A DNA stretch of 64,000 nt from an uncultured Bacteroidales bacterium (lineage in GTDB: Bacteria > Bacteroidota > Bacteroidia > Bacteroidales > UBA1402). This document shows, in pieces, positions 26,202 to 49,329 of this stretch; position 1 is the first letter of the stretch, and each line of letters opens with the position of its first letter. The position numbers were made by a program, and so were the translations under genes. The DNA lies in contig CAZCWK010000004.1 of the NCBI GenBank assembly GCA_964502355.1, positions 16,470-80,469 on the forward strand. Direction: 5' to 3'. Below the pieces are notes generated by a model. It was not told the origin of the DNA, did no database searches, and saw only the letters and a list, made by a program, of their open reading frames with translations.

Positions 26202-26831
26202 TTATTCGATAAGTTTGTTTTTAATAGCATACATGGTAAGATCAGCATTTGTTTTCATGTCCATCTTTTCCATGATTCTGGTCTTGTATGTACTCACTGT
26301 TTTATCAGAAATAAAAAGTGAAGCAGCAATTTCAGTAACGGACTTACCCTTCGCCAATAAAATCATAACCTGAAATTCCCTGGATGATAGCTGGTCATGC
26401 GGGAGTTTGTTGTCCATATCAGGATTTTGGAATATCAATCTTTCAGCCAGAGCAGCTGAAACATATTTACCACCGGAAGCAATTTTCCTGATTGCAAGAG
26501 CGAGCTCTTCAAATGCACTGTCTTTTGATAAATAACCCGATGCACCCAATTTAAAGGCCCTTATTGCATACTGTTCCTGAGGATAAAAACTGAAAACTAA
26601 AACTTTGGTATTGATGTTCCTGTCTTTCATCCTTTGTAAAACATCAAGACCGGTCATCCCGGGCATAGAAATATCAAGGATAACAAGATCGTATTCTGTG
26701 CTGCAGATTTTCGAAAAAGCCTGTACTCCATCCGAAACCTCTTCAATAAGGTTTATTTCCGGGAGGTTTCTGACTATTTGCTTTACACCTTCTCTTACAA
26801 TGGCATGGTCATCTGCTATAAGTATCTTCAT
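26202..26831 (-). CDS. NarL/FixJ-type response regulator (REC + LuxR HTH)
   Basis: 209 aa. Contains ADDH, the phospho-acceptor context LDISMPG, GYLSK and a C-terminal LuxR HTH (SVTEIAASLFISDKTVSTYKTRIMEKM). Confidence 0.9.
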   Translation of the reverse strand: MKILIADDHAIVREGVKQIVRNLPEINLIEEVSDGVQAFSKICSTEYDLVILDISMPGMTGLDVLQRMKDRNINTKVLVFSFYPQEQYAIRAFKLGASGYLSKDSAFEELALAIRKIASGGKYVSAALAERLIFQNPDMDNKLPHDQLSSREFQVMILLAKGKSVTEIAASLFISDKTVSTYKTRIMEKMDMKTNADLTMYAIKNKLIE

Positions 26832-27925
26832 AAACTTTGATTTTTTGGTACTTTAACTATAATGCTCGTTCCTCTACCTTCGTTATTGACAAAAGTAATT
26901 GAACCTCCGCATTGTTGTATCCTTTGCTTCATTCCCATAATTCCAAAAGATTTTCCTGACTGGATCTTTTCCTCAGGTATTCCCACTCCGTTATCGCAAA
27001 TTGTTAAGATTATTTCAGAATTTTCATCGAGCGCTATCGAGACCTCACTGGCTTCAGAATGTCTGATAACATTAGTCAATGCCTCCTGGATAATTCTGAA
27101 TAAAGTAAGACTGGCTTTTGGTGAAACATCTTCTATCTCTTTAAGAGTCAGGATGCATGGTACGCCTGTTCTGTCTATAAACTGCTCGCAATACCATTCT
27201 ATAGCAGGTACCAGGCCAAGATCATCAAGCACACCGGGATGCAATTCTGATGAAATCCTCTGAACTCTTCTGATAACTTCATTTGATGTCATTATCATTC
27301 TGTCCATTTTCTGAGAAACCAAATCCTTGTTATCAAGATTTTGTTTGACCCAGTTCAGATCCATCTTTAAAGCCGTCATTGCCTGACCAAGCTCGTCGTG
27401 TACCTGAAGTGAGATGGAGGACTTCTCCTCTTCGACAGCCTTTATAAGATACTCATTCATTTGCTCAAGCTGATCTTTAGCCTTTTTAAGCTCTAGCTCA
27501 GAAGCAATCAACATCTGAGTATTTTCAATCACTCTTTGTTTTTGCCAGAAAAGCTCAAGGAAAACCCTGATCTTGCTTGTCAGTATCAACTCATTAAGTG
27601 GTTTGATCAGATAATCAACTGCTCCGGCTTTATAACCCTCAAGTATCTTTGAATTATTCGGGTAGTCAGCGGTCAGAAATATTATCGGGACTTTATTGTC
27701 GGTGCGGTTTTCATTTAGCTTAACCGCAAGCTCATAGCCGTTCATAATTGGCATCTGAACGTCAAGTATGGCAAGTGAAAGGTCCGTTTCGTGTGTAAGA
27801 TCCAGCGCTTCCTGACCCGATGTAGCCCAAATCATCTTAGCCTGTATATTCCTTAATATGATTTCAAGGTACATAAGGTTGGTGGAGTTGTCGTCGACAA
27901 TCAAAATATTGGGGAGCGTTTGCAT
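26828..27925 (-). CDS. Soluble REC-histidine kinase (N-terminal receiver, coiled coil, HisKA_3 + HATPase)
   Basis: 365 aa with no TM segment. REC (VDDN...LDVQMP...LIKP), H-box VHDELGQ and an ATPase block DNGVGIP...GIMGM. Overlaps the downstream RR start by 4 nt. Confidence 0.85.
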   Translation of the reverse strand: MQTLPNILIVDDNSTNLMYLEIILRNIQAKMIWATSGQEALDLTHETDLSLAILDVQMPIMNGYELAVKLNENRTDNKVPIIFLTADYPNNSKILEGYKAGAVDYLIKPLNELILTSKIRVFLELFWQKQRVIENTQMLIASELELKKAKDQLEQMNEYLIKAVEEEKSSISLQVHDELGQAMTALKMDLNWVKQNLDNKDLVSQKMDRMIMTSNEVIRRVQRISSELHPGVLDDLGLVPAIEWYCEQFIDRTGVPCILTLKEIEDVSPKASLTLFRIIQEALTNVIRHSEASEVSIALDENSEIILTICDNGVGIPEEKIQSGKSFGIMGMKQRIQQCGGSITFVNNEGRGTSIIVKVPKNQSL

Positions 27926-28075: not shown

Positions 28076-28906
28076 ATGCCTAAATATAATATATTGGTTG
28101 TTGATGACAATCCCCATGCTGTCACCATGGTTTCAATTGTATTGTCAAGGAATATCGAATGCGAATTATCAGTAGCATTTGACGGACCTACAGCGATAAA
28201 AAAAGCGAGGGAAATCATACCGGATTTGATACTTATGGATTGGCAAATGCCGGGTATTGACGGTATCAGGGCTATAGAAATCTTAAAAGAAGATCCTGAA
28301 ACCACAAATATTCCGATAATAATGATTACCTGCTATTCAGAAAGAGATTATCTTGAAAAGGCTTTTAAAGCAGGTGTAATTGATTTCATCAAAAAACCAT
28401 ACGAGCAGGTCGAACTGCTTGCAAGGATCCGATCTGTTTTAAAGACAATCGATTATTACAAGGCTATGCTTGAATCTCAAAAAAGAGAGTCAACTGCACT
28501 TTCGCTTCAAAGTGTTCAAAATGAAGAGTTTAAGCATAAGTGTATATCTGAGCTTAAGCAATTGAAGTTAAATCACAAGACCAATCCTGAAAAGACTGAG
28601 GAGAATATTGATAAGGTTATAGTAAATCTTAATTCAGATATGTCTTCAAGCTCATGGAATCAGCTGGAACAAAGGATTAAGGATACCGATCAACAGTTTT
28701 TCAAGAGCATAGGCGAGAAGCATCCCAATCTTACTCCTGCCGAGATGAAGCTAAGTCTTTATCTGCGAATGAATCTCTCAACCAAAGAGATTTCCGGTCT
28801 TACATTCCAGACATATGACAGTGTAAGGATCGCGAGAACCAGACTCAGGAAAAAGCTGAACCTGTCAAATGACGACAATCTTGTAGGATATATAAGCTCA
28901 TTTTGA
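28076..28906 (+). CDS. Response regulator (REC + long linker + LuxR-type HTH)
   Basis: 276 aa. REC (VDDN...MDWQMPG...IKKP) and a C-terminal HTH (TPAEMKLSLYLRMNLSTKEISGLT...VRIARTRLRKKL). Confidence 0.8.
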   Translation: MPKYNILVVDDNPHAVTMVSIVLSRNIECELSVAFDGPTAIKKAREIIPDLILMDWQMPGIDGIRAIEILKEDPETTNIPIIMITCYSERDYLEKAFKAGVIDFIKKPYEQVELLARIRSVLKTIDYYKAMLESQKRESTALSLQSVQNEEFKHKCISELKQLKLNHKTNPEKTEENIDKVIVNLNSDMSSSSWNQLEQRIKDTDQQFFKSIGEKHPNLTPAEMKLSLYLRMNLSTKEISGLTFQTYDSVRIARTRLRKKLNLSNDDNLVGYISSF

Positions 28907-28909: not shown

Positions 28910-29023
28910 TTGTATCCTTTTTGTATCCTTAAATTTTATATACAAGTATCTGAATTGATTCTTTCTTTACTGTTTAAACCCCATAATCGTAATTATTTTT
29001 GTATATGGATTTTTGTATCCTTT
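28910..29023 (+). promoter_or_regulatory. Promoter of the giant adhesin gene: 21-nt TTGTATCCTTT x2 element, conserved 17-nt block, TAnnTTTG -7 box, third TTGTATCCTTT in the leader
   Basis: 21-mer at 28910-28930. TGATTCTTTCTTTACTG at 28956-28972. TATTTTTG at 28994-29001. TTGTATCCTTT at 29013-29023. The pilin promoter at 48541-48632 has the same register. Confidence 0.7.
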
Positions 29024-29046: not shown

Positions 29047-32000
29047 ATGATGCGATTCATAATTCGTAAGTTTAATATCTATACTCCTGTAATTATTACA
29101 ATTGCAGTACTTATATCGTTATTTTCTTTTACTTCCGATCTTATTGGGCAGACTACTCAGACTTTTACTTCAAGTGGAGCTTTTTCGGTTCCCGATCGTG
29201 TGATAGAAATAACTGTACAATGTTGGGGTGCCGGTGGTGCAGGAGGTGGATCTTCAACGTCGTCATATGGAGGTTCCGGTGGCGGTGGTGGTGCTTATTC
29301 GACTGGAACAATAAGTGTTGTACCTAATCAGAGCATATCATATACTGTTGGTCTTGGTGGATCAGGGAGTACAGGTAATGGTACAGCTGGAGGAAGTTCA
29401 TCCTTTTCAACTCTTACTGCCAATGGCGGTGGCGGTGGCGGTGGCGGTGGCGATAGTGGAACACGAGGAGCAGGAGGTACTGCTTCCGGAGGATCAACGA
29501 ATACTACAGGAGGTAATGGTGTAACAGGCGGCACTTCTGGTGGTAAAGGAGGAGATGGTGCTAATGGAGGTACAGGTGGAAATGGTAGTACAGATAATGA
29601 TGGTGTTGCAGGAAACTTTCCCGGAGGAGGTGGAGGAGGTGGAGAAGCTTCAGGAATTTGGCTTTGGACTACATCAAAATCAGGTGGAGCTGGAGCAAAT
29701 GGACAAATAAAAATAACATATTCCACTGTAAACGTTGTTGTTTCCGCTTCATCAGGTAGTACTACCGGTTATTATAAAACGCTTAAGAATGCATTTGACA
29801 AAATAAATGATGGTACTCACAAAGGAAATATTTCGATCACTATATATGGAGATCTTACTGAATCTTCTACTGCATTATTAAATGCCTCTGGAACCGGGAG
29901 TGCGAGTTACAATAATGTGAATATTTATCCTGTTGTCTCGGGTGTAACTATAAGCGGTTCAATAGATGGGCCTTTAATAAAGTTAGACGGAGCGGATAAT
30001 GTAACAATAGATGGTCGTGTAAATAATACCGGAAGTACTGCTGATTTGGTTATCGAGAATACAAATACAGGATCGGGTGCCGTAACGATTTCCATGGACA
30101 ATACGGCTCAAAATAATACAATCAGTTATTGTACAATTAAAGGCAGTGGAGGTTCGGATACTAATGGTACTATAAATTTTACCTCGACAGGTTCAAATAC
30201 TGGCAATACTATTACTCAAAATAATATTACAAAAAGTAGTACCGCAGGAAGGACAAATGCTGTCTACTCAAGTGGTTCAAATACGGGTAATACAGTTAGT
30301 AACAATAATTTCTATGATTGTTGGAATGTTGGTGCAAGTTCGAACTTTATTAATCTGGCATCATCAGCATCAGACTGGACGATAGGAGGGAACAGTTTTT
30401 ACAATACAACAACATTTCTTCCTGCCGGGGCTTACGAATACTATGGTATTAATATTTCAAACTCTGCTTCAGGTAATAATTTTTCAATAACCGGTAATTA
30501 TTTTGGTGGAAATGCTGCTTTGTGTTCAGGAACAATGACCATAGGCAATACGAGCGCACAATCTGTAAAATTTAATCCGGTTAATTTATCTGTTGGTACA
30601 ACTACTCCAACATCTGTTCAGGGTAACTATATCAGAGGTATTACTATGTATAGTGCCAATAATTTACCTTTTACCGGTATTAATCTAATTTCAGGACTCT
30701 TTAATGTTGGTGATGAAACCGGTAACAATATTGGACAAAACACAGGTACGGGATCAATTACAATAAATGGCTATTCTACTGCAACCGTTTCATATGGTAT
30801 AAACATAGCTACTTCAAATGATGTAGTGGTTTCAAATAATAATATTGGTTCTATCACAGCGGCTAACAACAACGCCGCTTACGGACATAGCTTTTATGGG
30901 ATAATAAAAAATGCGGGAGCCGGGACTTTGACTGTATCAAACAATTTAATTGGTAGTGCTTCAACAGCTGGAAGCATCAACTGTTCATCAGCTGCAACAG
31001 GTGAAAATCAGATATTATCCGGTATAAGTACAACAACAAGTTCTGCATTAAATTTCACTTTATCAGGTAATACAATTGCAAATCTGTCTAATGCCACAAC
31101 AAGAAATCATGCTGAGAATTCTGTATATGGTATAAGTTGTGCCGGAGCTTCAACTAATGTTTTATCAAATAACTTTATTCATCATCTTTCGTGTAGTTCA
31201 ACAGGAACAATTAATGTGGTTTCAGGTATTCAACTAACCAATTATTCAGGTGGAAACACTCTGAAAAACAATATTATTTCATTGGGTGACGGTTTGAACG
31301 GAAAGTTGTATGCAATAAATGGTATTTATGATGCTTGTAATATTACAAATGTTTATTACCACAATACCTCTTTTATTTCTGGAACAATTACAGGTAGTAC
31401 ATCTACCAACACTTATGCTTTCAATAATAATTCATGGATAAATCAGGGTATAAATCTTAAAAACAACATTTTTGCCAACTTAAGATCTGGAGGTTCAGGT
31501 ACCGGGAAGCATGTAGCTTTAAAAATTATGAATGTTAGTCCATCTGTAAGTGATTACAATGACTTATATGTGTCCGGAACAAATGGGATTACAGGTATAA
31601 ATAACACTACTTCCTGTCAGACTCTAGCAGATTGGCGCACATCTACTTCAAAAGATGCGAACAGCATTTCTGAGAATCCATCGTTTACAATAACTACAGG
31701 AAGTACGGCAACAGAGTTTATGCCGGGTAATGATATTTATGGTACAGATTTGACGGCAACTGTACCAACAGACTATTTTGGCACAACCAGATACACAGAT
31801 CCTACAATGGGTGCAGTAGAAAGGCCACTTACGTATAAAGTCGAAGTATATAATGGTTCAACACTTTTAGCTTCTTATATGAAACTGAAAAGTGCTTTTG
31901 ATAAGATTAATGATGGTTCACATACGGGTGCTTTAACTATTAAGTTGGTTGGCTCAACAAATGAAAAAGCTAAAGCAGTATTGAATGCAAGTGGTACAAC

Positions 32001-35000
32001 TACCGGTGGTGGCACCTCAAGCTATACAAGTATCAATATATATCCTACTATCTCAGGATTAAAGCTTGCTGGTAATTTGAATGATGCATTAATATTACTG
32101 AACGGAGCTGATAACATCACTTTTGATGGTAGAGTAAATGCAACGGGGTCTACACTTGACCTGATTATCCAAAATACTAATGTTTTACCGGGAGCCGTTA
32201 CTTTACTATTGGATAATTCAGCTCAAAACAATATATTCCAATATAATATTATTAAAGGAGGCGGTGGTGCATCAACTAATGGTACGTTCGTTTTTGGAGT
32301 CAATGGAAATAATTCAAATAATACAATAAGCAATTGCCAATTAACAAATAACGGAACAAGACGTCAGAATACTGTTTATTCTGCTACCGGCAATAATACC
32401 GGCAACAGTATGACTAATAATCAGATATATGACATTTGGTCTGCCGGGGCTACTTCTTACGCTGTTAATCTGGGTTCTGGTGTATCAGGATGGACTATCT
32501 CAGGAAACAGTATTTATGAAACCACGACTCTGACACCTTCTGCTGCTAATAACTATTATGGTATCAGTATCTCAAGTACATCAGGTAATGGTTTCACAAT
32601 AAGTGATAACTATATTGGTGGTCAGGCTACACAATGTGGAGGCTCGGCAATGGTATTAGGCAGTACATCTCAAAGTAGCATATTTTATCCTTTATATATA
32701 AATGCAGGGAGTGCTACGGCATCATCTGTACAAGGTAACAGGATTAAGAATATTAACTATTCAAGTTCAAGTGCCACACCATTTTATGGTATTTATATAA
32801 GTGCGGGACTTGTTAATATCGGTACGGTATCCGGTAATGCTATCGGAGATACAACTTCTACAGGAAATCTGACTTTAACATCGGGTGCTAATGCTGTTTC
32901 TTATGGAATATATGTTTCAAGCGCAAGTTCGGTTAATGTTTCCAACAATTTAATAGGATCAATTAACCTGGCGACTACATATAATTCTCATGGATTTACA
33001 GGTATCAAAAAGACTGCTGTTGCCGGAAGTTTTACTTCAGGTGGTAATAAAATAGGTAGTATTGCAACAGCCAACAATATAAGGTCTATCTCCTCTAATG
33101 CAAGCCAGAATATCATGGGTATCAGTACAGATGGTACCGGAAGCAATACAATAAGTAATAATATAATTGCAAATATTAATAATACTACAGGTCAGGGCAA
33201 TAGTAGTATGTATGGTATTTCTGCTTCAGGAGCCGGCACTACTACGGTTTCGTATAATTTTATTTATAATGTTTCATTAAGCACGACTGTAATTACAAAT
33301 AAGCTTGCAGGTATTCAAACATCATCTGGTTCCAATACTATTTATAACAACATTGTCGTTTTAGGCGGTAATATTACAAACGGGCTTTATTCAATAAATG
33401 GTTTATTATCAGAAAACGCTTCGACTGACTATTTTTATCACAATACTGTATATCTTTCAGGATCCATAAGTGGAGAAACCTCAGTTTATACCAACGCTTT
33501 TTATAAAGCAGTTACCGGTACTGCGATTATTAAAAATAATATTTTATTTAATGCAAGATCCGGAGGTACGGGTAATGGTAGACATAGTGCTATATCGCTC
33601 AATAGTACTACAGGCGTAACGAGTAATTATAATGTCTTATATGCTCCAAATACAAATGGAGTAGTAGGTGCGATTGTTTTAGATGCTTATAACGCGACCT
33701 CGTATGCAAATATTTCTAACTGGCGAAATGATTCAGGTGGTGATGCATCAAGTTTTAATATTGATCCGGCTTTTGCAAATGCCGGAGGTTTTGTTCCTGC
33801 CAATTATAAGCCAAGTGCTGCAGTGCTTGGAGAAAATATTATATCAATAGTTCCATATGATTTTGAAGGTGCGACGAGACCAATAACTCCTACTATGGGT
33901 GCTTTTGAAAGGATTCCGGGCAAAGTAAATGTTTATAGTGGACTGGATTATCAGGCAAGTTATACAACATTAAAAAGAGCTTTTGATAAAATAAATGATG
34001 GTACGCATACTGGAGCTCTGACTGTTAAGATAAGCGCGAATACTACAGAAAATCAAACTGCAACTCTTTATAATAGCGGATACACAAGTGGAAGTAAAGT
34101 TTCAAGTTATACTTCAGTTCTGATATATCCTACATCAAGCGGTATAACTGTTTCCGGATCGATAAACGGGGTTTTAATTAATCTTGATGGTGCAGATAAA
34201 GTTACGTTCGATGGGCGTGTCAATATGATTGGTTCTACGCCCGGCATGACAATTTCAAATACTTCTACTGGAGCCTCTACAGTTTCAATACAGCTTAATA
34301 ATACGGCACAGAATGATACTGTGAGGTATTGCAACATTCTTGGAGGTGGAGGAGGTGCAGCTAATGCGACCATACTTTTTGGTACGGCTGGAAATAATAG
34401 TAATAATGTTGTAGAAAATAACAATATTACCAATAACGGTACAAGAAGGGCTAATACTATTTATTCTGCAACAGGAACAAATGTTTCAAACATTATCCGA
34501 TACAACAATATTTACAATAACTGGAGTGCTTCAAACAATTCTTATTCGATAAATTTAGGAACTGGTGCCAGTGCCTGGACAATATCAGGCAACAGTATAT
34601 ATGCGACTACGTCTTTTACTTCCGGTGCTTATAGTTATTACGGTATTTATATATCAAATACTTCAGGTAATGGGTTTGAAATTTCAAACAATTACATTGG
34701 TGGAGGTGCACCATCCTGCGGTGGTACTGCTCTGACTATAGGCACAGCGTCATCAGTGATGTATCCAATTTATGTCAATGTCGGGTCTACGACTGCAACA
34801 TCGATTCAGGGCAATACTATTAAGAATATTTCATACACGAGTTCAAGTGCTACTCCATTTTATGGCATTTACATAAATACAGGTCTTGCTAATGTTGGTA
34901 CAGTTACTGGAAATATTTTTGGTGATGCTGCAACAGGTTCAATTACATTAACGGGTTCAGCGAATACTCCTTCGTCTTATGGTATTTATATTGCAAGTAC

Positions 35001-38000
35001 AGCTGCGGTTAATGTCTCGAATAATATTATAAGTTCTGTTACAGCCTCAAATACTTCGGCTGCAAACGCGCATAGTTTTTACGGAATATACAAAACATCA
35101 GGTGCCGGGACGCTCAATATTTCATCAAATGTAGTCGGGCACGGTTCAACTGCATCAAGTGTAATAACAAGCTCAGCTTCAACTGGAAGGGGGCAGATAT
35201 TAATGGGTATTTACTCTGCCGGGACTGGTGCCGTAACAATTTCGGACAATACAGTAGCCAATCTTGTAAATTCAACTACAACATCTTCTGCTTCAAGAAT
35301 AAGAGGCATCCAAACTGATGCGGGGTCGAATACTATTACAAGCAATAATATCTACAACCTTACGCTTCAAGCTGTGACCTCCAATACTACTGGAACTGAT
35401 GCATGTCAGATTGGTATTCATCAGGGTAGTGCGACTGGTGCTCAAACTATAGAAGGCAACAATGTAAATACTCTTACTAACAATTCTTCATCTGTAATTT
35501 CAGTATATGGTATTCTGTTTACAGGACCGACTACGGGTACTAATAGTGTCGCAAAGAATTATATTTATGGATTTAGTTTGCCGAATGTTAACCCTACAAC
35601 TTCGGTTGCACAGAGTTTTGTTGATGGTATCTACCTGGCTTCAGGAACAGTAAATGTTACAAACAATATTGTTGTTTTAGGTAATGGTATAACCAATAAC
35701 TGTACGATTTTTGGTATAAGAAATTTAACCTCAAGTGCTGTAACAGTATATCATAATACAATATTAATAAATGGAACTGCCGCAACCGGAGTGGGTTGGT
35801 CATTTGGTCTGTATGAAAACGCGGGTAGTACAAGTGTAACAAGAGACATAAGGAACAATATTTTTTGGAATACCCGTACCGGCGGGACTTCAGGGTCTGT
35901 TCATCATTGTGCTATATATATAAATGCAACTACTAATCTGACTCTTGATTATAATGATTATGGTTGGGTTGGAAGCTTTTTTGGTGAGTTTACTCCAGGA
36001 ACGTATTATGCGGATCTTGCCTCATGGAAAACAGCCACCGTTAAAGATGCGAACAGTATAAATACCGATCCTTTATTTTTAAATCCGGGGGGAACAGCAC
36101 CTGAAAATTATAAATCCGGTATTCAATTACAGGGTATTAACAATACCGGTGTTGCGTATGACTTTGGTAATACTGAGAGGGTTGAATTTACTATGGGTGC
36201 CTGGGAGTATCCTGCATCACGAGTATCTGTATATATTTCAGATGTTTTACAGCAAAACTATTTTACATTAAAAGCAGCTTTTGATGCTGTAAATGCAGGA
36301 ACGCATCAAGGTGTATTATCTATAAGGATTAATTCAAATACTAATGAACCCGGTACTGCGGCTTTGAATGCGAGTGGAACCGGCTCAGCAAATTACAGTA
36401 GAATTGTAATTTATCCTACAGGCCCTGATATCACTGTTAACGGAAATGTTAACGGACCTCTCGTAAATTTCCAGGGAGCTGACAATGTTTTCTTGAACGG
36501 TAGTGTTTATCAAACTAATACATCTCCTGGTTTGACGGTTTCTAATACTAATACCGGTACAGGTGCAAGCACTATATGCTTTAGTGAATCTGCTCAAAAT
36601 AACCGTGTTTCATACTGTATTCTTAAAGGTTCAGGACTAGGTTCTGGCAGAGGCGTTGTTTATTATGCAACATCTACATCCGGTAACGGTAATGACAATG
36701 ACACAATCTCAAATTGCAATATTACAGCTTCAACTGCCGGAAGACCGCTTAATACTGTTTATTCATCCGGAACTTCTGGTAGTGAGAATGATAATAATTT
36801 TATTTCAAATAATTCGGTATATAATTTTCTAAATCTTGCAAACAACTCTAATGGTGTACTTATAGATGGTAACTCAAATAGGTTTACCATCTCAGGTAAC
36901 AGTTTTTACGGAACAGCAACATTTACTCCGACTTCTGCTTCTACATTTAATATAATTAATATCAGTAATACTTCGGGAGGGGGGCATGTGATCTCCGGTA
37001 ACTATATTGGAGGTAGCAGTGCATTATGTACAGGCTCTTTTGTTAAGTCAGGCAACAACAATATTTTTAATGCTATTACTATAAATACAGGCACAGCTGA
37101 AGCTACGGGTGTATATGGTAATGTTATTAAAAATATCAGTATTACAAATACAGGAAATGCTGATTGTAAAGCCATAAATATTACATCCGGTTTGGTAAAT
37201 GTTGGTACTGCCGGAGGAAACACTATTGGCGAAACCACAGGAACCGGATCAATTACTCTTTCAAATGCAGCTACCGGAGGTTCCTTGTATGGTATATATA
37301 TATCTGGTTCCAATGATGTAAATTGTCAGAATAATTTAATAGGTTCTTTATCGACTACTTCAAGCAATACTGCGAATGCTGTTAGTTTATATGGTATTTT
37401 TAAAACGGCAATTGGTGGTAATACAAATATTTCTAACAATATTATAGGTAGCGTTACTACTGAAAATAGTATTAGTGCAAATTCAATATCTTCTTCAAAT
37501 ATTCAGCATGTATATGGAGTTTATTCTGCAGGCACAGGACAAACTACGATAAATGCAAATGAAATAGCTGATCTTACAAATGCTACTACCAGCACGCAGT
37601 ATTCTTTTACAAGGGGTATTATGACTATTGATGGTTCAAATACCATAACAAATAATACAATTCATCACCTGAAAACTTCAAGCTCTCAGGGGGAAAACTA
37701 TACAAATGTTTGTTTGGTTGGAATATTTCAGGTTAGCGAGACAGCCAATACTGTACAGACTATAACAGGAAACAAGATATTTGAACTTACAAATAATACG
37801 ACAGTTAAAATTGAGATTTATGGTATTTTCTACAAAGGACCAACTACAGGAAGTCCTACCACTCATCAGATAGGTAGAAATTTCATCCATACTTTTAATT
37901 TGGTTTCTACTACGGGAGCATATATACATGGTATATCCATGTATTCCGGAACATATACACTATCAAATAATATTGTATTTCTAGGAAATAATATAACGAC

Positions 38001-41000
38001 AGGTTGTAGTATTTGGGGTTTATGGAACTATAGCAGCAGCCCAATACGCATTTATCATAACACGTCGTATCTTACCGGTACAGCATCTTCAGGCACATCT
38101 TTTTCTTATGCGATGAGGGATTTGAGCGGCTCAGCGACTGACAGAAAAATCAAGAATAATATTTTTTGGGATGAACGAGTTGTTTCAGGTTCCATTTATC
38201 CTCATTACGCTATATATATTGAAAACACAAATAATCTGGAGCTGGATTATAATGACTACCAGTTTACGCAGTATATTGGAAAAGTAGGTACTACCAATTA
38301 TTCGACTTTAGCTAGTTGGCAAACAGGCACCGGGAAAGATTTAAATACGATTATCCTGAATCCTCAACTTACAAATCTTGGTGGTATTCTGCCATCTGAC
38401 TATCAGCCTAACGTCACAGGCTTGTCAGGAACGCCTCTTTCAGAAATACCTACCGATTTTGGTTTCATGGAAAGAAGCACTACTGCCCCGACTATGGGAG
38501 CATGGGAATATTTCTCAAATCCTGTCGAAATATGGAATGGTACAATTTTCAGGAATTCATATCCCACATTAAAAGGAGCTTTTGATAAAATAAATGATGG
38601 TACTTATAAAGGACCAACCGGAGACCTTATAATAAAAATCAGAGGTAATACAATAGAAACGGCTACGGCTACTCTTTATCATTCAGGTTATAACAGTATA
38701 TCAAATTATACTAAACTCCTTATATATCCTGCCAGAAGTAATATTCAGGTGAAGGGTACCTTGTCTGCTCCGCTTGTTGACCTGAATGGTGCAGATAATG
38801 TGATTTTTGACGGGCGTTTAAATGGTAATGCGTCGATGTATGAGTTAATGCTATTGAATGATGCCAATACAACAAGTGCTTCTACAATTAAGTTTACCAA
38901 TTCTGCTGAAAATAATACGATAAGGTATTGTAAGGTGCAGGGCCTTACTACTGCTACCAGTGGCGGTATTGTTTATTTCTCTTCATCTTCATCCGGAAAC
39001 GGTAATGATAATAACTGTATTTTAAATAATAAGATATCTATAGTTGATAACAATAACAATTATAGAGTAATCAATGGTGTATACTCAGAAGGGCTATCCG
39101 GATTTGAGAATAACAACGACAGTATTAAGAATAATGAAATTTATGATACCTGGAGTCCTGGAGTAAGTTCAAACAGTATAAATATTGCTTCCTATTCTTC
39201 CGGTTTCGTCATATCAGGAAATAGTATTTATGAAACCACTGCTTTTACACCTACAGCTGGTTATACTTATCAGGCGATAAGAATTAATAATACTTCTGGT
39301 ACAGGTTTTATTATTAGTGGCAATTACATAGGAGGTAAAGCTGCTCAATGTCAGGGTACAGCTATGAGTCTCGGTATTAACACATCTCAATCTATAGTTT
39401 ACCAGCCAATTTATATTAATGCAGGAACATCAATTGCTACATCTTTACAAGGAAATATTATACAAAATATTGAAGTCAGAAGTAGTAATGCTTCGCCTTT
39501 TTCGGCTATTTATGTTAATGGCGGTACTTCAAATATTGGAACCTCTTCAGCTAATACCGTTGGTAGTTCAACGGGTACAGGCTCGATAACCATTACCAAT
39601 AGTTCAGGCTCAGCAAATGCAAAATCTTATGGTGTTTATTTAAATACTTCAGGTGATGTTAATATAAATGCTAACAAAATTGGATCAATAACGACTGCAT
39701 CCAGCTCTAGTACTTACGGACATGATTTTTATGCAATATATAAAGCAGCAGTCTCCGGAGTTTTGACTATTGCAAATAATATTATAGGAAGTACTTCTAC
39801 ATCGGGTAGTGTTAATACAAGTAGTTCTTCTTCCAATAATAATCAGTTGCTTTGTGGAGTATATACTGATGGTACAGGCGTTACAAATATCAGAAATAAC
39901 ACCATAGCAAATTTACTTAACAGCACTACCAGGAACAACGTAAATAATAGTGTTATAGGTATTCGTTTAAATGGTGTAAACAGTAATGCAAATACTGTGG
40001 AACAAAATTTTGTTTATGGATTGTCCTGCTCAAATACAGCTACAACCAGTGCGGCAAATATGCTTTTAGGGATTTATGTAAACTCAGGAAATGCCAGTCT
40101 TATAAATAACATTATCAATTTAGGTCAGGGGATTTCGGCATTGTTTGGTATTTATGGAATAGTAATAACCGGTAACAGCTCTTATACTAATAATATTTAT
40201 CACAATACAGTATATATTTCAGGTACGGCTACAAATACCACATCAAATACTGCTGCATTTTATAAAATCAATACAGCCGGTCAGACTAATCTGAAAAACA
40301 ATATTCTGTTTAATGCCCGTTCGGGTGGAACTACAGGATACCATTATGCAATTTATTTACCGGGCAGTTCTAATCTGACTATAAATGGCAATGATTATTA
40401 TGTAAACGACACCCAAGGCAGATTAGGTTATTTATCAGGCGGTATAACTACAATTACTGCATGGAGGACAGCAACCGGTCAGGATGTAAACAGCATAAGT
40501 ACTAACCCTAATTTTGTAAGTGCGGGCTCCACTGTCGCTGCAGATTATTATCCCGGTTTAGGTGTAAATTTACTTGGATTATCCGGTACTGGTGTTAATG
40601 TGGACTACGGTAGTTATCCAAGAAGCTCGTCATCACCAACAATGGGAGCATGGGAAAGATCAAATAAATGGAAAGGAACCACAAGCATAGACTGGAATAC
40701 TGCCAGCAACTGGACAGGAAATACCGTACCAGCCGTTGATGACAATATAATTTTTGATGATGCTCCATTCAGGCCTTGTTATATGGATCAGGACAGGTTT
40801 GTAACAGATATAATCAATGCACAGTCAGCTTTCAGAATGGTAACCAATGGTTTTAATCTGAATATTAAAGGTAATCTCGTTTTTACTAACGGCGCGCAAA
40901 TAGATGCTTCTGCGACAGGCTCAACGGTTACATTTAATGGCTCTTCAGCTCAAACCATACCTTCTGGTACATTTTATAATGATAAGGTATATAATCTGAC

Positions 41001-42693
41001 AGTAAATAATTCATATAATGTAACTCTTAATGGTACTGTCCGTTTGCTGAATAATCTTACTGCTACCAGCGGTTTGCTTGATGCCACTCCTACAGGTGCC
41101 ACGATGATATATGAAGGGACATCTGAACAAACAATAGCTTCTTCTCAATATGTTAATAATCAGGCTTATAATATAACAGCAAATAATGCCGCTGGTGTAG
41201 TCGTCAATACTAACTTCACTGTTTTGAACAACGCTGCGATTAATTCCGGAGATAAGCTCACGATACCTGAAAATATCGGATTGACTGTAAATGGTACAAT
41301 GACGAATAATGCCGGTAATGCGGGTTTATTATTAAAGTCTTCGATAATCGGTACAGCATCGCTTATACATAATTCAAACGGAGTAGCGGCTACTGTTCAG
41401 CGTTACGTAGACGGAGATAGCACTGTTTGGCATTTCTTAGCACCGCCGGTTAGTGGTCAGCCAATACATGGTACTTCATGGACACCATCGGGTAATTATG
41501 GTGATGGTACAGGTTATGATATGTATGTTTGGGACGAACATACTTCTTGTTGGGTTTATAATCTTAATACCACTGCTACACCTACATGGACTTCCATTCA
41601 TCCGGTTGACAATTTTATTGCTGGGAGGGGCTATTTATATGCATTACTGGATTCGGCTTCAACAAAAAGTTTTGCGGGAAACCTTAATAATGGAGTGGTT
41701 TATCAGACTTTGACAGCTTCTTCTGATTCTGTTCAGTTGAAAGGTTTCAACTTTATCGGGAATCCGTATCCAAGTAGTATTGACTGGTCTGTTAGTGCCG
41801 GATTCTCAAGGTCTATGTTATATAACAATGGAGGAGGATATGATATTTGGACATGGAGTAATACTGCTGAAAATTATGGAGTATATAATTCTGCTGATGC
41901 TGATGGCACTGGTACAAATAATGTAACTAAATTTATTGCTCCTATGCAGGGTTTCTTCGTGTATGCATCAACAGGTGGTACCTTTGGTTTCAACAATGCG
42001 GCAAGAGCTCATACAGGCGCAAGTACCTGGTTGAAGAGTGCGCCGGCCAGAAGTTCCGGTAAAATAAAACTTACTGTCAGTGCGCCGGAAAGCAAAGGCA
42101 GTGACGAGATACAAATGAGGTTCGGATATAACAGTAATGACGAAGGCGCATATAAATTATTCAGTAATGTAAAAACTGCTCCAAGTCTGTTTATACCTTA
42201 TTATAATAAGAACTATGCTGTAAGACGACTGACAACTGCAGAAGATAATAAGAAAACTCCTCTTTCATTCAGGGCAGGAGTAGATGGTAAATATTCTATA
42301 ACATGTCAGTTTGATCCGACTGTTACTGACAAAATATTCCTGGAAGACAAAATAACAGGCACAATACATGACTTCAGTCAGTCAGATACTTATACATTCA
42401 CGGCGAAACCGGGAGATTTGCAGTCCCGCTTTGCAATACATCTGGGTGAAATAGTCCCTGAAGATAATATTGACCTTTTTGCAGTTTATGCAAGAGCAGG
42501 TGTATTATATGTGGATTTAAGTAATCTGAATGACGAATATGAGGTTACAGTCTACGACCTTGGCGGTAAAGTGTTGCACAAAGCCAAAGTATTCGGTGGC
42601 GATGTAGAAGAAGTCTCCCTCAGCACCAGAGGTATTTACATGGTTTCACTCAGATCACAGAAGTTTTTAGTAACAAAGAAGGTGGTGTATTAA
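29047..42693 (+). CDS. Giant (4548 aa) T9SS-secreted surface protein: signal peptide, Gly-rich N-terminal domain, five ~700-770-aa beta-helix-like modules, C-terminal region and T9SS sorting domain
   Basis: A single uninterrupted ORF. N-terminal hydrophobic signal. Block TFTSSGAFSVPD..EITVQCWGAGGAGGG. Pervasive NN(I/F)-type short repeats rich in Asn/Gly/Ser/Thr. Type A T9SS CTD at the end. Confidence 0.85.
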   Translation: MMRFIIRKFNIYTPVIITIAVLISLFSFTSDLIGQTTQTFTSSGAFSVPDRVIEITVQCWGAGGAGGGSSTSSYGGSGGGGGAYSTGTISVVPNQSISYTVGLGGSGSTGNGTAGGSSSFSTLTANGGGGGGGGGDSGTRGAGGTASGGSTNTTGGNGVTGGTSGGKGGDGANGGTGGNGSTDNDGVAGNFPGGGGGGGEASGIWLWTTSKSGGAGANGQIKITYSTVNVVVSASSGSTTGYYKTLKNAFDKINDGTHKGNISITIYGDLTESSTALLNASGTGSASYNNVNIYPVVSGVTISGSIDGPLIKLDGADNVTIDGRVNNTGSTADLVIENTNTGSGAVTISMDNTAQNNTISYCTIKGSGGSDTNGTINFTSTGSNTGNTITQNNITKSSTAGRTNAVYSSGSNTGNTVSNNNFYDCWNVGASSNFINLASSASDWTIGGNSFYNTTTFLPAGAYEYYGINISNSASGNNFSITGNYFGGNAALCSGTMTIGNTSAQSVKFNPVNLSVGTTTPTSVQGNYIRGITMYSANNLPFTGINLISGLFNVGDETGNNIGQNTGTGSITINGYSTATVSYGINIATSNDVVVSNNNIGSITAANNNAAYGHSFYGIIKNAGAGTLTVSNNLIGSASTAGSINCSSAATGENQILSGISTTTSSALNFTLSGNTIANLSNATTRNHAENSVYGISCAGASTNVLSNNFIHHLSCSSTGTINVVSGIQLTNYSGGNTLKNNIISLGDGLNGKLYAINGIYDACNITNVYYHNTSFISGTITGSTSTNTYAFNNNSWINQGINLKNNIFANLRSGGSGTGKHVALKIMNVSPSVSDYNDLYVSGTNGITGINNTTSCQTLADWRTSTSKDANSISENPSFTITTGSTATEFMPGNDIYGTDLTATVPTDYFGTTRYTDPTMGAVERPLTYKVEVYNGSTLLASYMKLKSAFDKINDGSHTGALTIKLVGSTNEKAKAVLNASGTTTGGGTSSYTSINIYPTISGLKLAGNLNDALILLNGADNITFDGRVNATGSTLDLIIQNTNVLPGAVTLLLDNSAQNNIFQYNIIKGGGGASTNGTFVFGVNGNNSNNTISNCQLTNNGTRRQNTVYSATGNNTGNSMTNNQIYDIWSAGATSYAVNLGSGVSGWTISGNSIYETTTLTPSAANNYYGISISSTSGNGFTISDNYIGGQATQCGGSAMVLGSTSQSSIFYPLYINAGSATASSVQGNRIKNINYSSSSATPFYGIYISAGLVNIGTVSGNAIGDTTSTGNLTLTSGANAVSYGIYVSSASSVNVSNNLIGSINLATTYNSHGFTGIKKTAVAGSFTSGGNKIGSIATANNIRSISSNASQNIMGISTDGTGSNTISNNIIANINNTTGQGNSSMYGISASGAGTTTVSYNFIYNVSLSTTVITNKLAGIQTSSGSNTIYNNIVVLGGNITNGLYSINGLLSENASTDYFYHNTVYLSGSISGETSVYTNAFYKAVTGTAIIKNNILFNARSGGTGNGRHSAISLNSTTGVTSNYNVLYAPNTNGVVGAIVLDAYNATSYANISNWRNDSGGDASSFNIDPAFANAGGFVPANYKPSAAVLGENIISIVPYDFEGATRPITPTMGAFERIPGKVNVYSGLDYQASYTTLKRAFDKINDGTHTGALTVKISANTTENQTATLYNSGYTSGSKVSSYTSVLIYPTSSGITVSGSINGVLINLDGADKVTFDGRVNMIGSTPGMTISNTSTGASTVSIQLNNTAQNDTVRYCNILGGGGGAANATILFGTAGNNSNNVVENNNITNNGTRRANTIYSATGTNVSNIIRYNNIYNNWSASNNSYSINLGTGASAWTISGNSIYATTSFTSGAYSYYGIYISNTSGNGFEISNNYIGGGAPSCGGTALTIGTASSVMYPIYVNVGSTTATSIQGNTIKNISYTSSSATPFYGIYINTGLANVGTVTGNIFGDAATGSITLTGSANTPSSYGIYIASTAAVNVSNNIISSVTASNTSAANAHSFYGIYKTSGAGTLNISSNVVGHGSTASSVITSSASTGRGQILMGIYSAGTGAVTISDNTVANLVNSTTTSSASRIRGIQTDAGSNTITSNNIYNLTLQAVTSNTTGTDACQIGIHQGSATGAQTIEGNNVNTLTNNSSSVISVYGILFTGPTTGTNSVAKNYIYGFSLPNVNPTTSVAQSFVDGIYLASGTVNVTNNIVVLGNGITNNCTIFGIRNLTSSAVTVYHNTILINGTAATGVGWSFGLYENAGSTSVTRDIRNNIFWNTRTGGTSGSVHHCAIYINATTNLTLDYNDYGWVGSFFGEFTPGTYYADLASWKTATVKDANSINTDPLFLNPGGTAPENYKSGIQLQGINNTGVAYDFGNTERVEFTMGAWEYPASRVSVYISDVLQQNYFTLKAAFDAVNAGTHQGVLSIRINSNTNEPGTAALNASGTGSANYSRIVIYPTGPDITVNGNVNGPLVNFQGADNVFLNGSVYQTNTSPGLTVSNTNTGTGASTICFSESAQNNRVSYCILKGSGLGSGRGVVYYATSTSGNGNDNDTISNCNITASTAGRPLNTVYSSGTSGSENDNNFISNNSVYNFLNLANNSNGVLIDGNSNRFTISGNSFYGTATFTPTSASTFNIINISNTSGGGHVISGNYIGGSSALCTGSFVKSGNNNIFNAITINTGTAEATGVYGNVIKNISITNTGNADCKAINITSGLVNVGTAGGNTIGETTGTGSITLSNAATGGSLYGIYISGSNDVNCQNNLIGSLSTTSSNTANAVSLYGIFKTAIGGNTNISNNIIGSVTTENSISANSISSSNIQHVYGVYSAGTGQTTINANEIADLTNATTSTQYSFTRGIMTIDGSNTITNNTIHHLKTSSSQGENYTNVCLVGIFQVSETANTVQTITGNKIFELTNNTTVKIEIYGIFYKGPTTGSPTTHQIGRNFIHTFNLVSTTGAYIHGISMYSGTYTLSNNIVFLGNNITTGCSIWGLWNYSSSPIRIYHNTSYLTGTASSGTSFSYAMRDLSGSATDRKIKNNIFWDERVVSGSIYPHYAIYIENTNNLELDYNDYQFTQYIGKVGTTNYSTLASWQTGTGKDLNTIILNPQLTNLGGILPSDYQPNVTGLSGTPLSEIPTDFGFMERSTTAPTMGAWEYFSNPVEIWNGTIFRNSYPTLKGAFDKINDGTYKGPTGDLIIKIRGNTIETATATLYHSGYNSISNYTKLLIYPARSNIQVKGTLSAPLVDLNGADNVIFDGRLNGNASMYELMLLNDANTTSASTIKFTNSAENNTIRYCKVQGLTTATSGGIVYFSSSSSGNGNDNNCILNNKISIVDNNNNYRVINGVYSEGLSGFENNNDSIKNNEIYDTWSPGVSSNSINIASYSSGFVISGNSIYETTAFTPTAGYTYQAIRINNTSGTGFIISGNYIGGKAAQCQGTAMSLGINTSQSIVYQPIYINAGTSIATSLQGNIIQNIEVRSSNASPFSAIYVNGGTSNIGTSSANTVGSSTGTGSITITNSSGSANAKSYGVYLNTSGDVNINANKIGSITTASSSSTYGHDFYAIYKAAVSGVLTIANNIIGSTSTSGSVNTSSSSSNNNQLLCGVYTDGTGVTNIRNNTIANLLNSTTRNNVNNSVIGIRLNGVNSNANTVEQNFVYGLSCSNTATTSAANMLLGIYVNSGNASLINNIINLGQGISALFGIYGIVITGNSSYTNNIYHNTVYISGTATNTTSNTAAFYKINTAGQTNLKNNILFNARSGGTTGYHYAIYLPGSSNLTINGNDYYVNDTQGRLGYLSGGITTITAWRTATGQDVNSISTNPNFVSAGSTVAADYYPGLGVNLLGLSGTGVNVDYGSYPRSSSSPTMGAWERSNKWKGTTSIDWNTASNWTGNTVPAVDDNIIFDDAPFRPCYMDQDRFVTDIINAQSAFRMVTNGFNLNIKGNLVFTNGAQIDASATGSTVTFNGSSAQTIPSGTFYNDKVYNLTVNNSYNVTLNGTVRLLNNLTATSGLLDATPTGATMIYEGTSEQTIASSQYVNNQAYNITANNAAGVVVNTNFTVLNNAAINSGDKLTIPENIGLTVNGTMTNNAGNAGLLLKSSIIGTASLIHNSNGVAATVQRYVDGDSTVWHFLAPPVSGQPIHGTSWTPSGNYGDGTGYDMYVWDEHTSCWVYNLNTTATPTWTSIHPVDNFIAGRGYLYALLDSASTKSFAGNLNNGVVYQTLTASSDSVQLKGFNFIGNPYPSSIDWSVSAGFSRSMLYNNGGGYDIWTWSNTAENYGVYNSADADGTGTNNVTKFIAPMQGFFVYASTGGTFGFNNAARAHTGASTWLKSAPARSSGKIKLTVSAPESKGSDEIQMRFGYNSNDEGAYKLFSNVKTAPSLFIPYYNKNYAVRRLTTAEDNKKTPLSFRAGVDGKYSITCQFDPTVTDKIFLEDKITGTIHDFSQSDTYTFTAKPGDLQSRFAIHLGEIVPEDNIDLFAVYARAGVLYVDLSNLNDEYEVTVYDLGGKVLHKAKVFGGDVEEVSLSTRGIYMVSLRSQKFLVTKKVVY
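29731..40659 (+). repeat. Five tandem, diverged coding modules inside the giant gene
   Basis: Landmark (Y..LK.AFDKINDG(T/S)H.G) at nt 29791, 31894, 33979, 36277 and 38578, all in frame, with spacings of 701, 695, 766 and 767 aa. Each module ends in (P/F)TMGA(V/F/W)E. Confidence 0.85.
42466..42690 (+). other. T9SS type A C-terminal sorting domain
   Basis: ...YEVTVYDLGGKVLHKAKV...VSLSTRGIYMVSLRSQKFLVTKKVVY matches the usual CTD pattern (V.iYd..GK.v..., GiY.v.v, K.v.). Confidence 0.8.
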
Positions 42694-42794
42694 ATATTCT
42701 TCAAATTATCTGACTGCGTTCGTAGCAGATATCAGCAATAAAATTTATAATTATAACATATATGTTGTATATTTACAACAAATGTGTTGCGATT

Positions 42795-43295
42795 ATGGAA
42801 GAAATTATAGTAAAAAACATTAAACCTTTCGATACAAAAGGCAGTATCAAAAGGTCGATTAGCAGCGATACTGACAAATCCTGGGTTATTGAGACCCCGG
42901 TAAAGGCTTATCGTTGGAAAAACAACATTGAAAAGATAAACATTATCAGGGAAGGGATTCCTTATGATGCTTTTGATACATTAAGCAGACAACTAAATAT
43001 TCCTGTTAAAGCTACTCTTGCCATGATAGGTATGCCTCAAACGACATACAACAAGAAAAAAAATGAAAAATCGCTGTTAGATAGAAGAAATAGTGAATTA
43101 GTTATGCTGATAGTAGAGTTAATTCAATTCGGACTTGAAGTTTTTAATAACGAGGAAATCAAGTTTCAAAGATGGTTGAAGAAACCGAATATTTCTTTGG
43201 GTGGCAATTCTCCTGAAAGTATGCTGGATACGATAACCGGAATAGATGAAGTTAAGCACTGCCTTAACAGAATTGAATTTGGAAATTTTGCGTGA
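42795..43295 (+). CDS. Xre/MbcA/ParS-type antitoxin (DUF2384 toxin-binding domain)
   Basis: C-terminal FQRWLKKPNISLGGNSPESMLDT..GIDEV...L.RIEFGNFA. Start set at MEEIIV. A 4-nt ATGA overlap links it to the RES gene. Confidence 0.75.
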   Translation: MEEIIVKNIKPFDTKGSIKRSISSDTDKSWVIETPVKAYRWKNNIEKINIIREGIPYDAFDTLSRQLNIPVKATLAMIGMPQTTYNKKKNEKSLLDRRNSELVMLIVELIQFGLEVFNNEEIKFQRWLKKPNISLGGNSPESMLDTITGIDEVKHCLNRIEFGNFA

Positions 43296-43771
43296 TGAAG
43301 ATCTATAGAGTTGAAAGAGAAAAGTATATTGAAACCACCTTGACAGGAATAGGGGCTTCAATGACTGATGGATTCCGTTGGAACAGTTTATTTACCAGAC
43401 TTGTTTATACATCTGAAAGCAGGGCATTGGCTATGCTTGAGGTTTTTGTACATATGGATTTAAGTGAGGATTTACCTGCAGACCGGATTCTTGTTGAAAT
43501 ATTTATTCCTGATAATGTAATTATACAGGAAGTAAAAACAGAGGATCTTCCTAAAGGGTGGGATGCTAAGCCTCCTGCTGTCATTACACAAACAATAGGA
43601 GATGATTTTGTTATTCAAAAAACTGCTTTGATATTAAAAGTGCCGAGTTATATTGTTCCTGATGAATACAATTATCTGATTAATCCTTATCACGAAGATA
43701 TCAGTAAGCTGAAGATACTTAATATTGCTCCTTTGACTTTTGATAATAGATTGATTAATCCGGGTATGTGA
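43292..43771 (+). CDS. RES-domain toxin (MbcT/ParT-like NAD+-targeting family)
   Basis: 159 aa. GFRWNS...LVYTSESRALAMLEVFVH carries the R-E-S signature context. Confidence 0.75.
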   Translation: MMKIYRVEREKYIETTLTGIGASMTDGFRWNSLFTRLVYTSESRALAMLEVFVHMDLSEDLPADRILVEIFIPDNVIIQEVKTEDLPKGWDAKPPAVITQTIGDDFVIQKTALILKVPSYIVPDEYNYLINPYHEDISKLKILNIAPLTFDNRLINPGM

Positions 43772-43782
43772 TAATTATAGAC

Positions 43783-47527: not shown

Positions 47528-47577
47528 AAACTTGCGAAAGACTTTGCTTTATTCACGATTTTATCTCGCTATGCCTT

Positions 47578-49272: not shown

Positions 49273-49329
49273 TTAACGGTATATTTGTATAAATTCATTT
49301 TATAAATATTCCAAAATTAAGGCAGCTAA

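Follow-up and report, generated by a model that had tools for sequence, protein, structure and literature searches.

A four-site repeat array at the promoters of a giant adhesin gene and a DUF4402 pilus operon in uncultured Bacteroidales, and its candidate response regulator

Introduction

How might a giant surface adhesin and a pilus, encoded at separate places in one genome, come under common control? The question is raised by a stretch of 64,000 nucleotides from an uncultured Bacteroidales bacterium (contig CAZCWK010000004.1, positions 16,470 to 80,469; hereafter the window), in which the 21-mer TTGTATCCTTTTTGTATCCTT occurs at 28910-28930 and, identically, at 48541-48561, on the forward strand both times and 19.6 kb apart. 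The first copy precedes the gene for a giant adhesin of the type IX secretion system (T9SS), and the second precedes an operon of DUF4402 pilin genes. An earlier note, made from the letters of the sequence alone, had read the 21-mer as the element of an activator that drives both. Here we describe what the element consists of, where else it is found, and which protein may read it. We consider it probable, at roughly 0.6, that these are two activator-dependent sigma-A promoters of one regulon, read by the response regulator encoded next to the first of them, at 28076-28906.

Results

Two promoters with one layout

The 21-mer is made of two abutting 11-bp TTGTATCCTTT units. Its first copy starts 4 nt past the stop codon of the regulator gene at 28076-28906 and ends 117 nt 5' of the giant-gene ATG (29047), and its second copy lies upstream of the first DUF4402 gene (ATG 48730). 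Two further elements follow at both loci. A 17-nt block, TGATTCTTTCTTTACTG at 28956-28972 and TGATGCTTTCTTTTCTG at 48587-48603, is identical at 15 of 17 positions, with the consensus TGAT[T/G]CTTTCTTT[A/T]CTG, and 84 nt past the first base of the 21-mer, at exactly that distance in both loci, come the sequences TATTTTTGTA (28994) and TATCTTTGTA (48625), of the common form TAT[T/C]TTTGTA. These coordinates had been given in the earlier note, together with related words at 29013 and 28881, and on recheck all of them are correct.

The paired promoter pattern is real and far beyond chance. Written as TTGTATCCNNNTTGTATCC, it occurs at only these two places in the 64-kb window, even when up to three mismatches are permitted, and the estimated chance probability of a second exact copy of the 21-mer in 64 kb is about 3e-8. 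In an ungapped comparison of the 73 nt 3' of the 21-mer, 39 positions are identical between the loci, whereas random pairs from the window share 19.4 on average, and a score of 39 was reached by 1 in 20,000 random pairs or shuffles. This similarity is clustered in blocks that are co-linear without gaps, and it ends at the 5' edge of the 21-mer; the 60 nt on the other side are unrelated (18/60 identical). That the two 21-mers are exactly alike is due to strong constraint on the sites and not to recent copying. A leader RNA element was also considered and rejected, as there is no Rfam family at gathering score and no tRNA anywhere in the window. The stretch from the regulator gene to the 21-mer showed no terminator, which leaves room for transcription to read through from that gene.

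When the promoters are aligned, the 21-mer turns out to be the well-conserved distal half (R1 and R2) of an array of four sites. R1 and R2 are near-perfect copies of the word TTGTATCC, R3 and R4 are weaker copies, and together they form 8-bp direct repeats on a single helix face. The layout is as follows, with positions given relative to the start of the 21-mer and to the predicted transcription start site (TSS).

R1: offset 0, about -96 from the predicted TSS
R2: offset +11, about -85
R3: offset +33/34 (+34 in the window), about -62
R4: offset +44/45 (+45 in the window), about -51
T-run: offset about +54 to +59, about -42 to -37
-7 box TAnnTTTG: offset +84, about -12

In the window these elements are found at the following places.

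28910-28917 and 28921-28928, + strand: distal pair R1 and R2 of the giant-gene promoter, each TTGTATCC, 11 bp apart
28944-28951 and 28955-28962, + strand: proximal pair R3 AAGTATCT and R4 TTGATTCT of the giant-gene promoter, degenerate, in the columns of the conserved R3 and R4
28994-29001, + strand: sigma-A -7 box TATTTTTG of the giant gene, with a predicted TSS near 29006 and a predicted leader of about 41 nt
29013-29023, + strand: extra TTGTATCCTTT in the predicted giant-gene leader, about +8 to +18, lineage-specific
48490-48549, + strand: three tandem 20-bp units AAACCGAACAATTGTATCCT (Tandem Repeats Finder, 3.0 copies, 82% matches), the last overlapping R1
48541-48548 and 48552-48559, + strand: distal pair R1 and R2 of the pilin-operon promoter
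48575-48582 and 48586-48593, + strand: proximal pair R3 ATGTTTCC and R4 CTGATGCT of the pilin-operon promoter
48625-48632, + strand: sigma-A -7 box TATCTTTG of the pilin operon, with a predicted TSS near 48637 and a predicted leader of about 93 nt

The -7 box TAnnTTTG spans -12 to -5 in promoters mapped in Flavobacterium, and each TSS was accordingly predicted 12 nt past the start of the box (PMC9723704). Both TATTTTTG and TATCTTTG match this consensus at +84, which bears out the earlier assignment to Bacteroidota sigma-A, and the box is likewise present, at +82 to +85, in 30 distinct promoters recovered by the two scans described below. Among these 30 aligned promoters there is no conserved -33 TTTG (at -36 to -33), and the T-run at about -42 to -37 alone is conserved in that region. 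The missing canonical -33 TTTG is consistent with promoters that may depend on an activator.

Some parts of the earlier proposal change with this layout. The fixed distance between the 21-mer and the -7 box stands, but the 21-mer is only the distal pair of the four-site array, and the 17-nt block amounts to R4 plus a T-rich segment, since R4 opens the region of the 28956-28972 block. The third TTGTATCCTTT, at 29013-29023, is present in the window but absent from the giant-gene promoters of loci L041, L067 and L079 (loci from other genomes are cited by L number, and their regulator proteins by P number). The related word TTGTAGGATA at 28881 is also present, but it is not part of the element, because it lies inside the regulator coding sequence, where it spells the NLVGYI codons, and is unconserved as DNA in the orthologous L041; an inverted repeat that would include this word was rejected on the same grounds. 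Another exact TTGTATCCTTT is found at 26915-26925, antisense within a hybrid kinase gene. It has no partner site and may be due to chance.

The pilin promoter has features of its own. Its 20-bp units bring in TTGTTTCC and TTGTATCC words 40 and 20 nt upstream of R1, and a tandem array of this kind was not seen among the other loci compared. The units have a near-palindromic GAACAATTGTT core, which may add sites or serve a second factor, and CCGAACAA...TTGTTCGG brackets the 21-mer at this promoter. The sequence TTGTTTCCCTTCTGATGCT of the pilin promoter is also present in L054, with similar sequences in L017, L021, L028, L031, L045 and L051.

The same architecture in other genomes

The earlier note had called for a wider search for the repeat and its composite architecture, and two scans were made. 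The first covered GTDB representatives with the 19-mer TTGTATCCTTTTTGTATCC as its sole requirement; of the source genome, the analysis covered the 64-kb window. It returned 44 loci, 15 of them in Bacteroidota, and TAnnTTTG stands at +82 to +85 in 8 of these 15. The eight box-bearing loci come from four metagenome-assembled genomes of Bacteroidales or Bacteroidota and have a third TTGTATC[CT] at +33/34. None of the 19-mer loci outside Bacteroidota has the promoter architecture, and their contexts are unrelated. In Streptococcus (L003, L004, L008, L016, L018, L023, L027 and L035), the 19-mer is part of a conserved intergenic repeat, GGATACGACAAAAACGTTGTATCCTTTTTGTATCC, that is unrelated to the array. 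In L001 (5242-5350) and L030 it lies about 60 nt from a tRNA 3' end, with a terminator-like hairpin between and no box at +84, and in L001 it adjoins a 329-aa open reading frame (ORF) without a Pfam match.

The second scan covered metagenomes with a pattern of the site pair followed 58-70 nt later by a -7 box, so that R1, R2 and the box are forced. It returned 34 loci, in which the promoters with the box at 82-85 nt make up a coherent family; matches with the box at 77-81 or 86-88 nt, together with L056 and L069, look like chance. The 30 distinct promoters are those of both scans combined. Anchored on the -7 box, they show conservation that neither search forced: R3 as TTGT[A/T]TCC at 33/34, R4 as CTGTATAGG or CTGATGCT at 44/45, the T-run, and TATCG 3' of the -7 box. 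Some have a weak TTGTACCC near offset 24, and most of the pilin promoters have an R-like word, TTTGTATCG, that runs across the -7 box and the TSS. The giant-gene promoters of L041, L067 and L079 are laid out as in the window, and the sites are thus conserved at orthologous promoters across genomes.

The architecture therefore recurs at pilin and adhesin promoters in many uncultured Bacteroidales, from sludge, digesters and sediments. The 30 promoters, the 8 of 15 Bacteroidota loci and the unforced R3, R4 and T-run agree with the earlier view of a conserved architecture rather than a recent copy.

A candidate regulator beside the first promoter

Two regulators had been named as candidate readers of the 21-mer. 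They and a kinase gene lie together just upstream of the first promoter.

28076-28906, + strand: candidate regulator, 276 aa (Pfam Response_reg, 88 bits, E=5e-25)
26828-27925, - strand: hybrid kinase with receiver (REC), HisKA_3 and HATPase_c domains (Pfam), divergent from the regulator gene, a possible phosphodonor
26202-26831, - strand: NarL-type regulator with REC and GerE domains (Pfam, NCBIfam), the second candidate of the earlier note

The comparison of loci favours the first of these. Orthologues of the 276-aa regulator (38-81% identity) lie directly upstream of the promoter and a large T9SS/SprB-type gene in L041, L067, L079, L083, L085 and L089. The window included, every locus in which the start of a giant gene can be seen has the regulator next to it. 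No other regulator stays linked to the module across the loci compared. The first candidate is linked and, as described below, its recognition helix appears to track the repeat word, but for 26202-26831 no orthologue was detected in the related loci compared; this second protein has a sub-threshold match to NCBIfam FimZ. The hybrid kinase has an orthologue in L067, 78.5% identical and in the same divergent position, and is not conserved beside more distant regulator orthologues.

The 276-aa protein is a predicted DNA-binding response regulator of the NarL/FixJ class, atypical in its helical hairpin of about 100 residues. Its receiver keeps the acidic pocket and the phospho-acceptor Asp, and residues D10, D11, D55 and K107 are invariant or nearly so in 44 orthologues. 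The AlphaFold2 (AF2) model (predicted local distance difference test, pLDDT, 85.8) consists of the receiver, helices at 111-169 and 171-215, and a four-helix bundle at 221-274, with a recognition helix that reads ...YDSVRIARTRLRKK. A profile of 24 C-termini matches only helix-turn-helix (HTH) structures of the LuxR type, best 3clo at E=0.0024, with further matches to StyR, EL222, DosR, NarL, GerE, VraR and EvgA. A Foldseek search with the full-length model returned StyR, FixJ, VraR and LiaR, and precomputed PF00196 matches exist on several orthologues. By profile and model, the C-terminal domain is a divergent GerE/LuxR HTH. Proteins of the NarL/FixJ class have a short linker and about 200-220 aa; here helices of about 59 and about 45 residues are inserted. 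Full-length orthologues of about 276 aa were found down to about 35% identity. NCBIfam has no curated name for the family, and its PhoB models match the receiver only, far below cutoff.

A suggestive co-variation of repeat word and recognition helix

If the regulator reads the repeats, a change in its recognition helix might be accompanied by a change in the word. Three word classes were found with three helix classes. A ...SVRIAR... helix goes with TTGTATCC or TTATATCC words (window, L041, L067 and L079). The ...SVRVSR... clade (P0075, P0098 and P0104, 46-57% mutual identity) goes with TTGCTTCC (L083, L085 and L089), and the ...SVRTAR... helix of P0068 goes with TTGTTTCA (L086). Five of these loci were found via the regulator protein and not via the motif.

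L079: regulator 59% identical; words TTATATCC and TTGTATCC; -7 box at +84
L083: regulator 38% identical; TTGCTTCC four times, at 0, 11, 33 and 44; box at +84
L085: clade of L083; TTGCTTCC pair, 51 nt before the box
L089: clade of L083; CTGCTTCC and TTGCTTCC, 50 nt before the box
L086: regulator 37% identical; TTGTTTCA three times and TTGTTTGC, at 0, 11, 33 and 44; TATATTTA at +83

The spacing of 50-51 nt between pair and box in L085 and L089 equals the distance from R3 to the box. Co-variation of word and helix while the geometry is kept is the strongest argument for the adjacent regulator as the reader of the sites, and with about ten informative loci it is suggestive. The set leaves out P0048 (63% identical, with a VS helix) and P0093. 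Like P0048, the proteins P0053-55 resemble the window regulator closely and yet have helices of the VS or IS kind. L081 and L082 are disrupted by an insertion sequence element, and no clear array was seen in L088, which has an HSP20 neighbour. In L083, about 25 tandem copies of AAAGTGA(G/A)CT follow the regulator stop (8830-9030), and reverse-complement copies lie upstream of the TTGCTTCC array (about 9310-9420).

The genes that the promoters precede

The common promoter that the earlier note had proposed for the adhesin and the pilus is matched by what lies downstream elsewhere. In 24 promoters outside the window the first downstream ORF is a DUF4402 pilin, and downstream of the L067 promoter there is a giant protein 48% identical to the N-terminal third of the window adhesin. 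The window genes are the following.

29047-42693, + strand: giant adhesin gene, 4548 aa (ORF list)
42694-48489, no strand: insertion of 5.8 kb between the giant gene and the pilin promoter (from Pfam content)
48730-56516, + strand: pilus operon (Pfam DUF4402, E=1e-12 to 1e-29)
48730-51433, + strand: five DUF4402 pilin genes
51633-52469, + strand: PapD-like chaperone (PDB 4ncd E=2.6e-5, CfaA 4e-4, EcpB 0.18)
52499-53053, + strand: sixth DUF4402 gene
53086-56136, + strand: putative usher, 1016 aa (from size and position only)
56166-56516, + strand: ORF of 116 aa

The conserved module runs from the regulator through its promoter, the giant adhesin, a gap of 24 nt and the second promoter to pilins, chaperone, pilin, a large outer-membrane protein and the 116-aa protein. 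This order is seen in L041, L053, L057, L064, L068 and L076, where the giant-gene stop lies only 24 nt before R1, and comparison of the loci marks it as ancestral. The 5.8-kb block that splits the module in the window is, by the same comparison, a derived, defence-like insertion, because the gap is only 24 nt in the six related loci. It encodes an Xre/RES toxin-antitoxin pair, a Schlafen AlbA_2 protein, an AAA_15 ATPase with a 224-aa ORF, and an HU-HIG protein (47836-48246); no integrase was found among its ORFs or in the 19.6-kb segment between the 21-mers (ORF list, Pfam).

The giant adhesin has an N-terminal Gly_rich_2 domain (E=1.1e-11), and the last 167 residues score 31 bits against TIGR04183 (cutoff 23), as for a sorting domain of T9SS type A; in L079 the adhesin orthologue matches Pfam Por_Secre_tail. 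Most of the gene is built from internal repeats that have diverged and recur about every 2.1-2.3 kb, with GGN-rich glycine tracts near the 5' end. In the six loci with the 24-nt gap, the giant gene ends ...AAGGTTGTATAC/TTAA (KVVY stop), so that an R-like word, TTGTATAC or TTGTATAT, comes to lie 35 nt 5' of R1. This word probably reflects the coding constraint of the T9SS sorting domain.

The pilus gene order is repeated in L051, L057, L063, L068, L075 and L076. The DUF4402 proteins have signal peptides and a C-terminal ...VTVAYN motif; a pilin search found no PDB sequence match, and the AF2 model (pLDDT 58.5) is too poor for use of the fold. The match to PapD-like chaperones makes the label "pilus operon" reasonable, and the operon may encode a non-canonical chaperone-type pilus in Bacteroidales. 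The 1016-aa protein matches CarboxypepD_reg only, with no Usher family and no PDB sequence match, although it could be too divergent for these and folds were not compared; its counterpart in L079 has an OmpA domain.

The promoter is not confined to the module. A second copy precedes the second pilin gene in L057 and L063, and in L007, L048, L062, L074 and L077 it stands between tpiA and a lone pilin gene at an unlinked locus. A trans-acting factor is therefore implied by these unlinked copies. In the tpiA context of L058 and L066, the same promoter precedes a 499-aa PAS-HisKA-HATPase kinase, the ORF of which has an N-terminus like a pilin signal peptide, suggesting replacement or fusion. Secreted proteins of about 200 aa without a Pfam match stand under the same promoter architecture in L015 (3389-4000) and L061 (=L034). 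In L015 a chaperone-sized gene follows, and these proteins may be a second pilin family of the regulon.

Discussion

Most likely, the array is where the response regulator encoded next to the first promoter binds. [quoted passage not shown] The strong distal pair R1/R2 would nucleate binding, and the helical hairpin plausibly mediates an oligomerisation that helps to fill the weak R3 and R4. The proximal complex would contact RNA polymerase beside the -33 region, where the promoter has no good element of its own. Giant T9SS adhesin and DUF4402 pilus would then be switched on together, as would the extra pilin genes in other genomes.

Several points weigh against this regulon and its assignment to the 276-aa protein. 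The support comes from sequence and model comparison throughout, and most promoter instances were gathered with a pattern that forces R1, R2 and the -7 box. The 276-aa protein has no match to Pfam GerE, and its HTH profile matches are marginal (E=0.002-0.06). LuxR-type HTH proteins usually bind inverted repeats, and the sites here are direct repeats. The co-variation rests on three or four clades, and any lineage-specific factor could equally explain it. The R-like word TTTGTATCG, which most pilin promoters have across their -7 box and TSS, would fit a repressive component. Finally, the distant homologues in L087, with a weak pair only, and in L090, with palindromes, do not fit in any simple way. 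Downstream of the L090 homologue (helix SVRVSR), at 6480-6570, there are three 14-bp palindromes, TTGTAnnnnTACAA, and no direct repeats.

Alternatively, the array may be a true transcription-factor site that is read by another protein, either 26202-26831 or an unlinked regulator, while the 276-aa regulator does something else. The gene at 26202-26831 encodes a canonical REC-GerE protein in an operon with the HisKA_3 kinase, about 2 kb away, and the unlinked promoters in the tpiA context mean that the factor acts in trans and that linkage is unnecessary; the co-variation is also thin. However, 26202-26831 has no counterpart in the related loci, the 276-aa regulator is adjacent at every giant-gene 5' end in view, and the repeat word changes together with the recognition helix of that regulator. 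We regard a different reader as unlikely.

The repeats could also be repressor operators, or a scaffold for a nucleoid protein such as HU-HIG, that silence both loci. The TTTGTATCG word over the -7 box and TSS and the leader word at 29013 would suit such a role, and an HU-HIG gene is at hand at 47836-48246. The best-conserved sites, however, occupy the stretch from about -96 to -44 of a promoter that has no recognisable -33, where activators usually sit, and the HU-HIG gene sits in the insertion that other loci lack. Silencing is quite improbable as the function of the array.

It is very improbable, and largely refuted, that the 21-mer is left over from a duplication or a mobile element, such as flanking direct repeats or an attachment site, with no regulatory role. 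Exact direct 21-mers do flank a segment with defence-type and toxin-antitoxin genes, and the 19-mers of L001 and L030 adjoin a tRNA gene. Against this, the array and its distance to the -7 box are kept in about 30 promoters of many genomes, none with the insertion; the similarity is limited to functional blocks and goes no further 5' than the 21-mer; the segment is without an integrase; and the ORF next to the L001 copy is without a Pfam match and is not a recombinase. The mobile-element or attachment-site reading was rejected on the missing integrase and on the presence of the array in genomes without the insertion. Phase variation of adhesin and pilus through slippage of the 11-bp (and 20-bp) units and a change in promoter spacing is hardly credible: tandem repeats are detected at both loci by Tandem Repeats Finder and fimbrial genes are often phase-variable, but two 11-mer copies are a poor slippage substrate, and all 30 promoters from diverse samples keep two copies and 82-85 nt to the -7 box.

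To return to the regulon of the adjacent regulator, a wider proposal can be made, which we would put at somewhat below even odds. The regulator would belong to an undescribed subfamily (receiver, coiled-coil hairpin, LuxR HTH) that acts as the master switch of an unrecognised surface module with a co-evolving code, a counterpart of bvg-fha-fim by convergence. In the code, helix residues IA, VS or TA would set positions 4-5 of the repeat as TA, CT or TT, with the 0/11/33/44/+84 geometry rigid, and the module would comprise the giant T9SS beta-helix adhesin, the DUF4402 pilus, the PapD-like chaperone and a non-canonical usher; the same tentative standing covers code and module jointly.

The searchable literature yielded nothing on DUF4402, on the regulator family or on the motif, and TTGTATCC appeared there only in primers. 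A module without literature thus gains an entry point in the form of a cis-element, a rigid geometry, a candidate regulator and a predicted specificity code open to experiment. The proposed regulatory link between adhesin and pilus in uncultured Bacteroidales suggests a joint role in attachment, and the motif can be used to predict members of the regulon in metagenome-assembled genomes.

Mechanistically the system is ordinary: phased sites for a two-component regulator, placed 5' of a weak promoter, are a familiar design, and it is the surface module that is unstudied. PhoB and OmpR boxes are head-to-tail 11-bp direct repeats upstream of a weak -35, and they are filled cooperatively. The 11-bp direct-repeat logic is common to both, but the output domain is a winged helix there and a four-helix LuxR-type HTH here. 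DegU of B. subtilis, a member of the NarL family, has been reported to use tandem direct repeats at aprE in its phosphorylated form. It differs in phylum, promoter type and targets and is without the helical hairpin insertion. Response regulators also control pilus operons in the case of FimZ (Salmonella and E. coli), which is NarL-type, and of FimS/FimR (Porphyromonas gingivalis), where FimR belongs to the OmpR type and acts on type V FimA pili rather than DUF4402 pili. Neither has this repeat array or a link to a giant T9SS adhesin.

In the bvgAS-fhaB-fimBCD region of Bordetella, a gene for a LuxR-type regulator stands beside a giant adhesin gene, followed by chaperone-usher fimbrial genes, and these are co-regulated. 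At BvgA promoters one monomer binds per turn on one face, with the high-affinity site furthest upstream and a weak site by an imperfect -35 (PMC7250471). BvgA at fhaB and fim is the closest analogue of the present system, sharing with it the order of regulator, adhesin and fimbriae as well as phased sites that are strong distally and weak proximally. For BvgA the heptad half-sites are inverted, and the dimers on them sit head-to-head at intervals of 22 bp, whereas here the repeats are direct, 8 bp long and arranged as two pairs 33 bp apart. The present system also differs from BvgA in the hairpin of about 100 residues, in the Bacteroidota sigma-A -7 box TAnnTTTG, and in its use of the T9SS instead of two-partner secretion. 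The resemblance is convergent, with no sequence relationship beyond the domain families.

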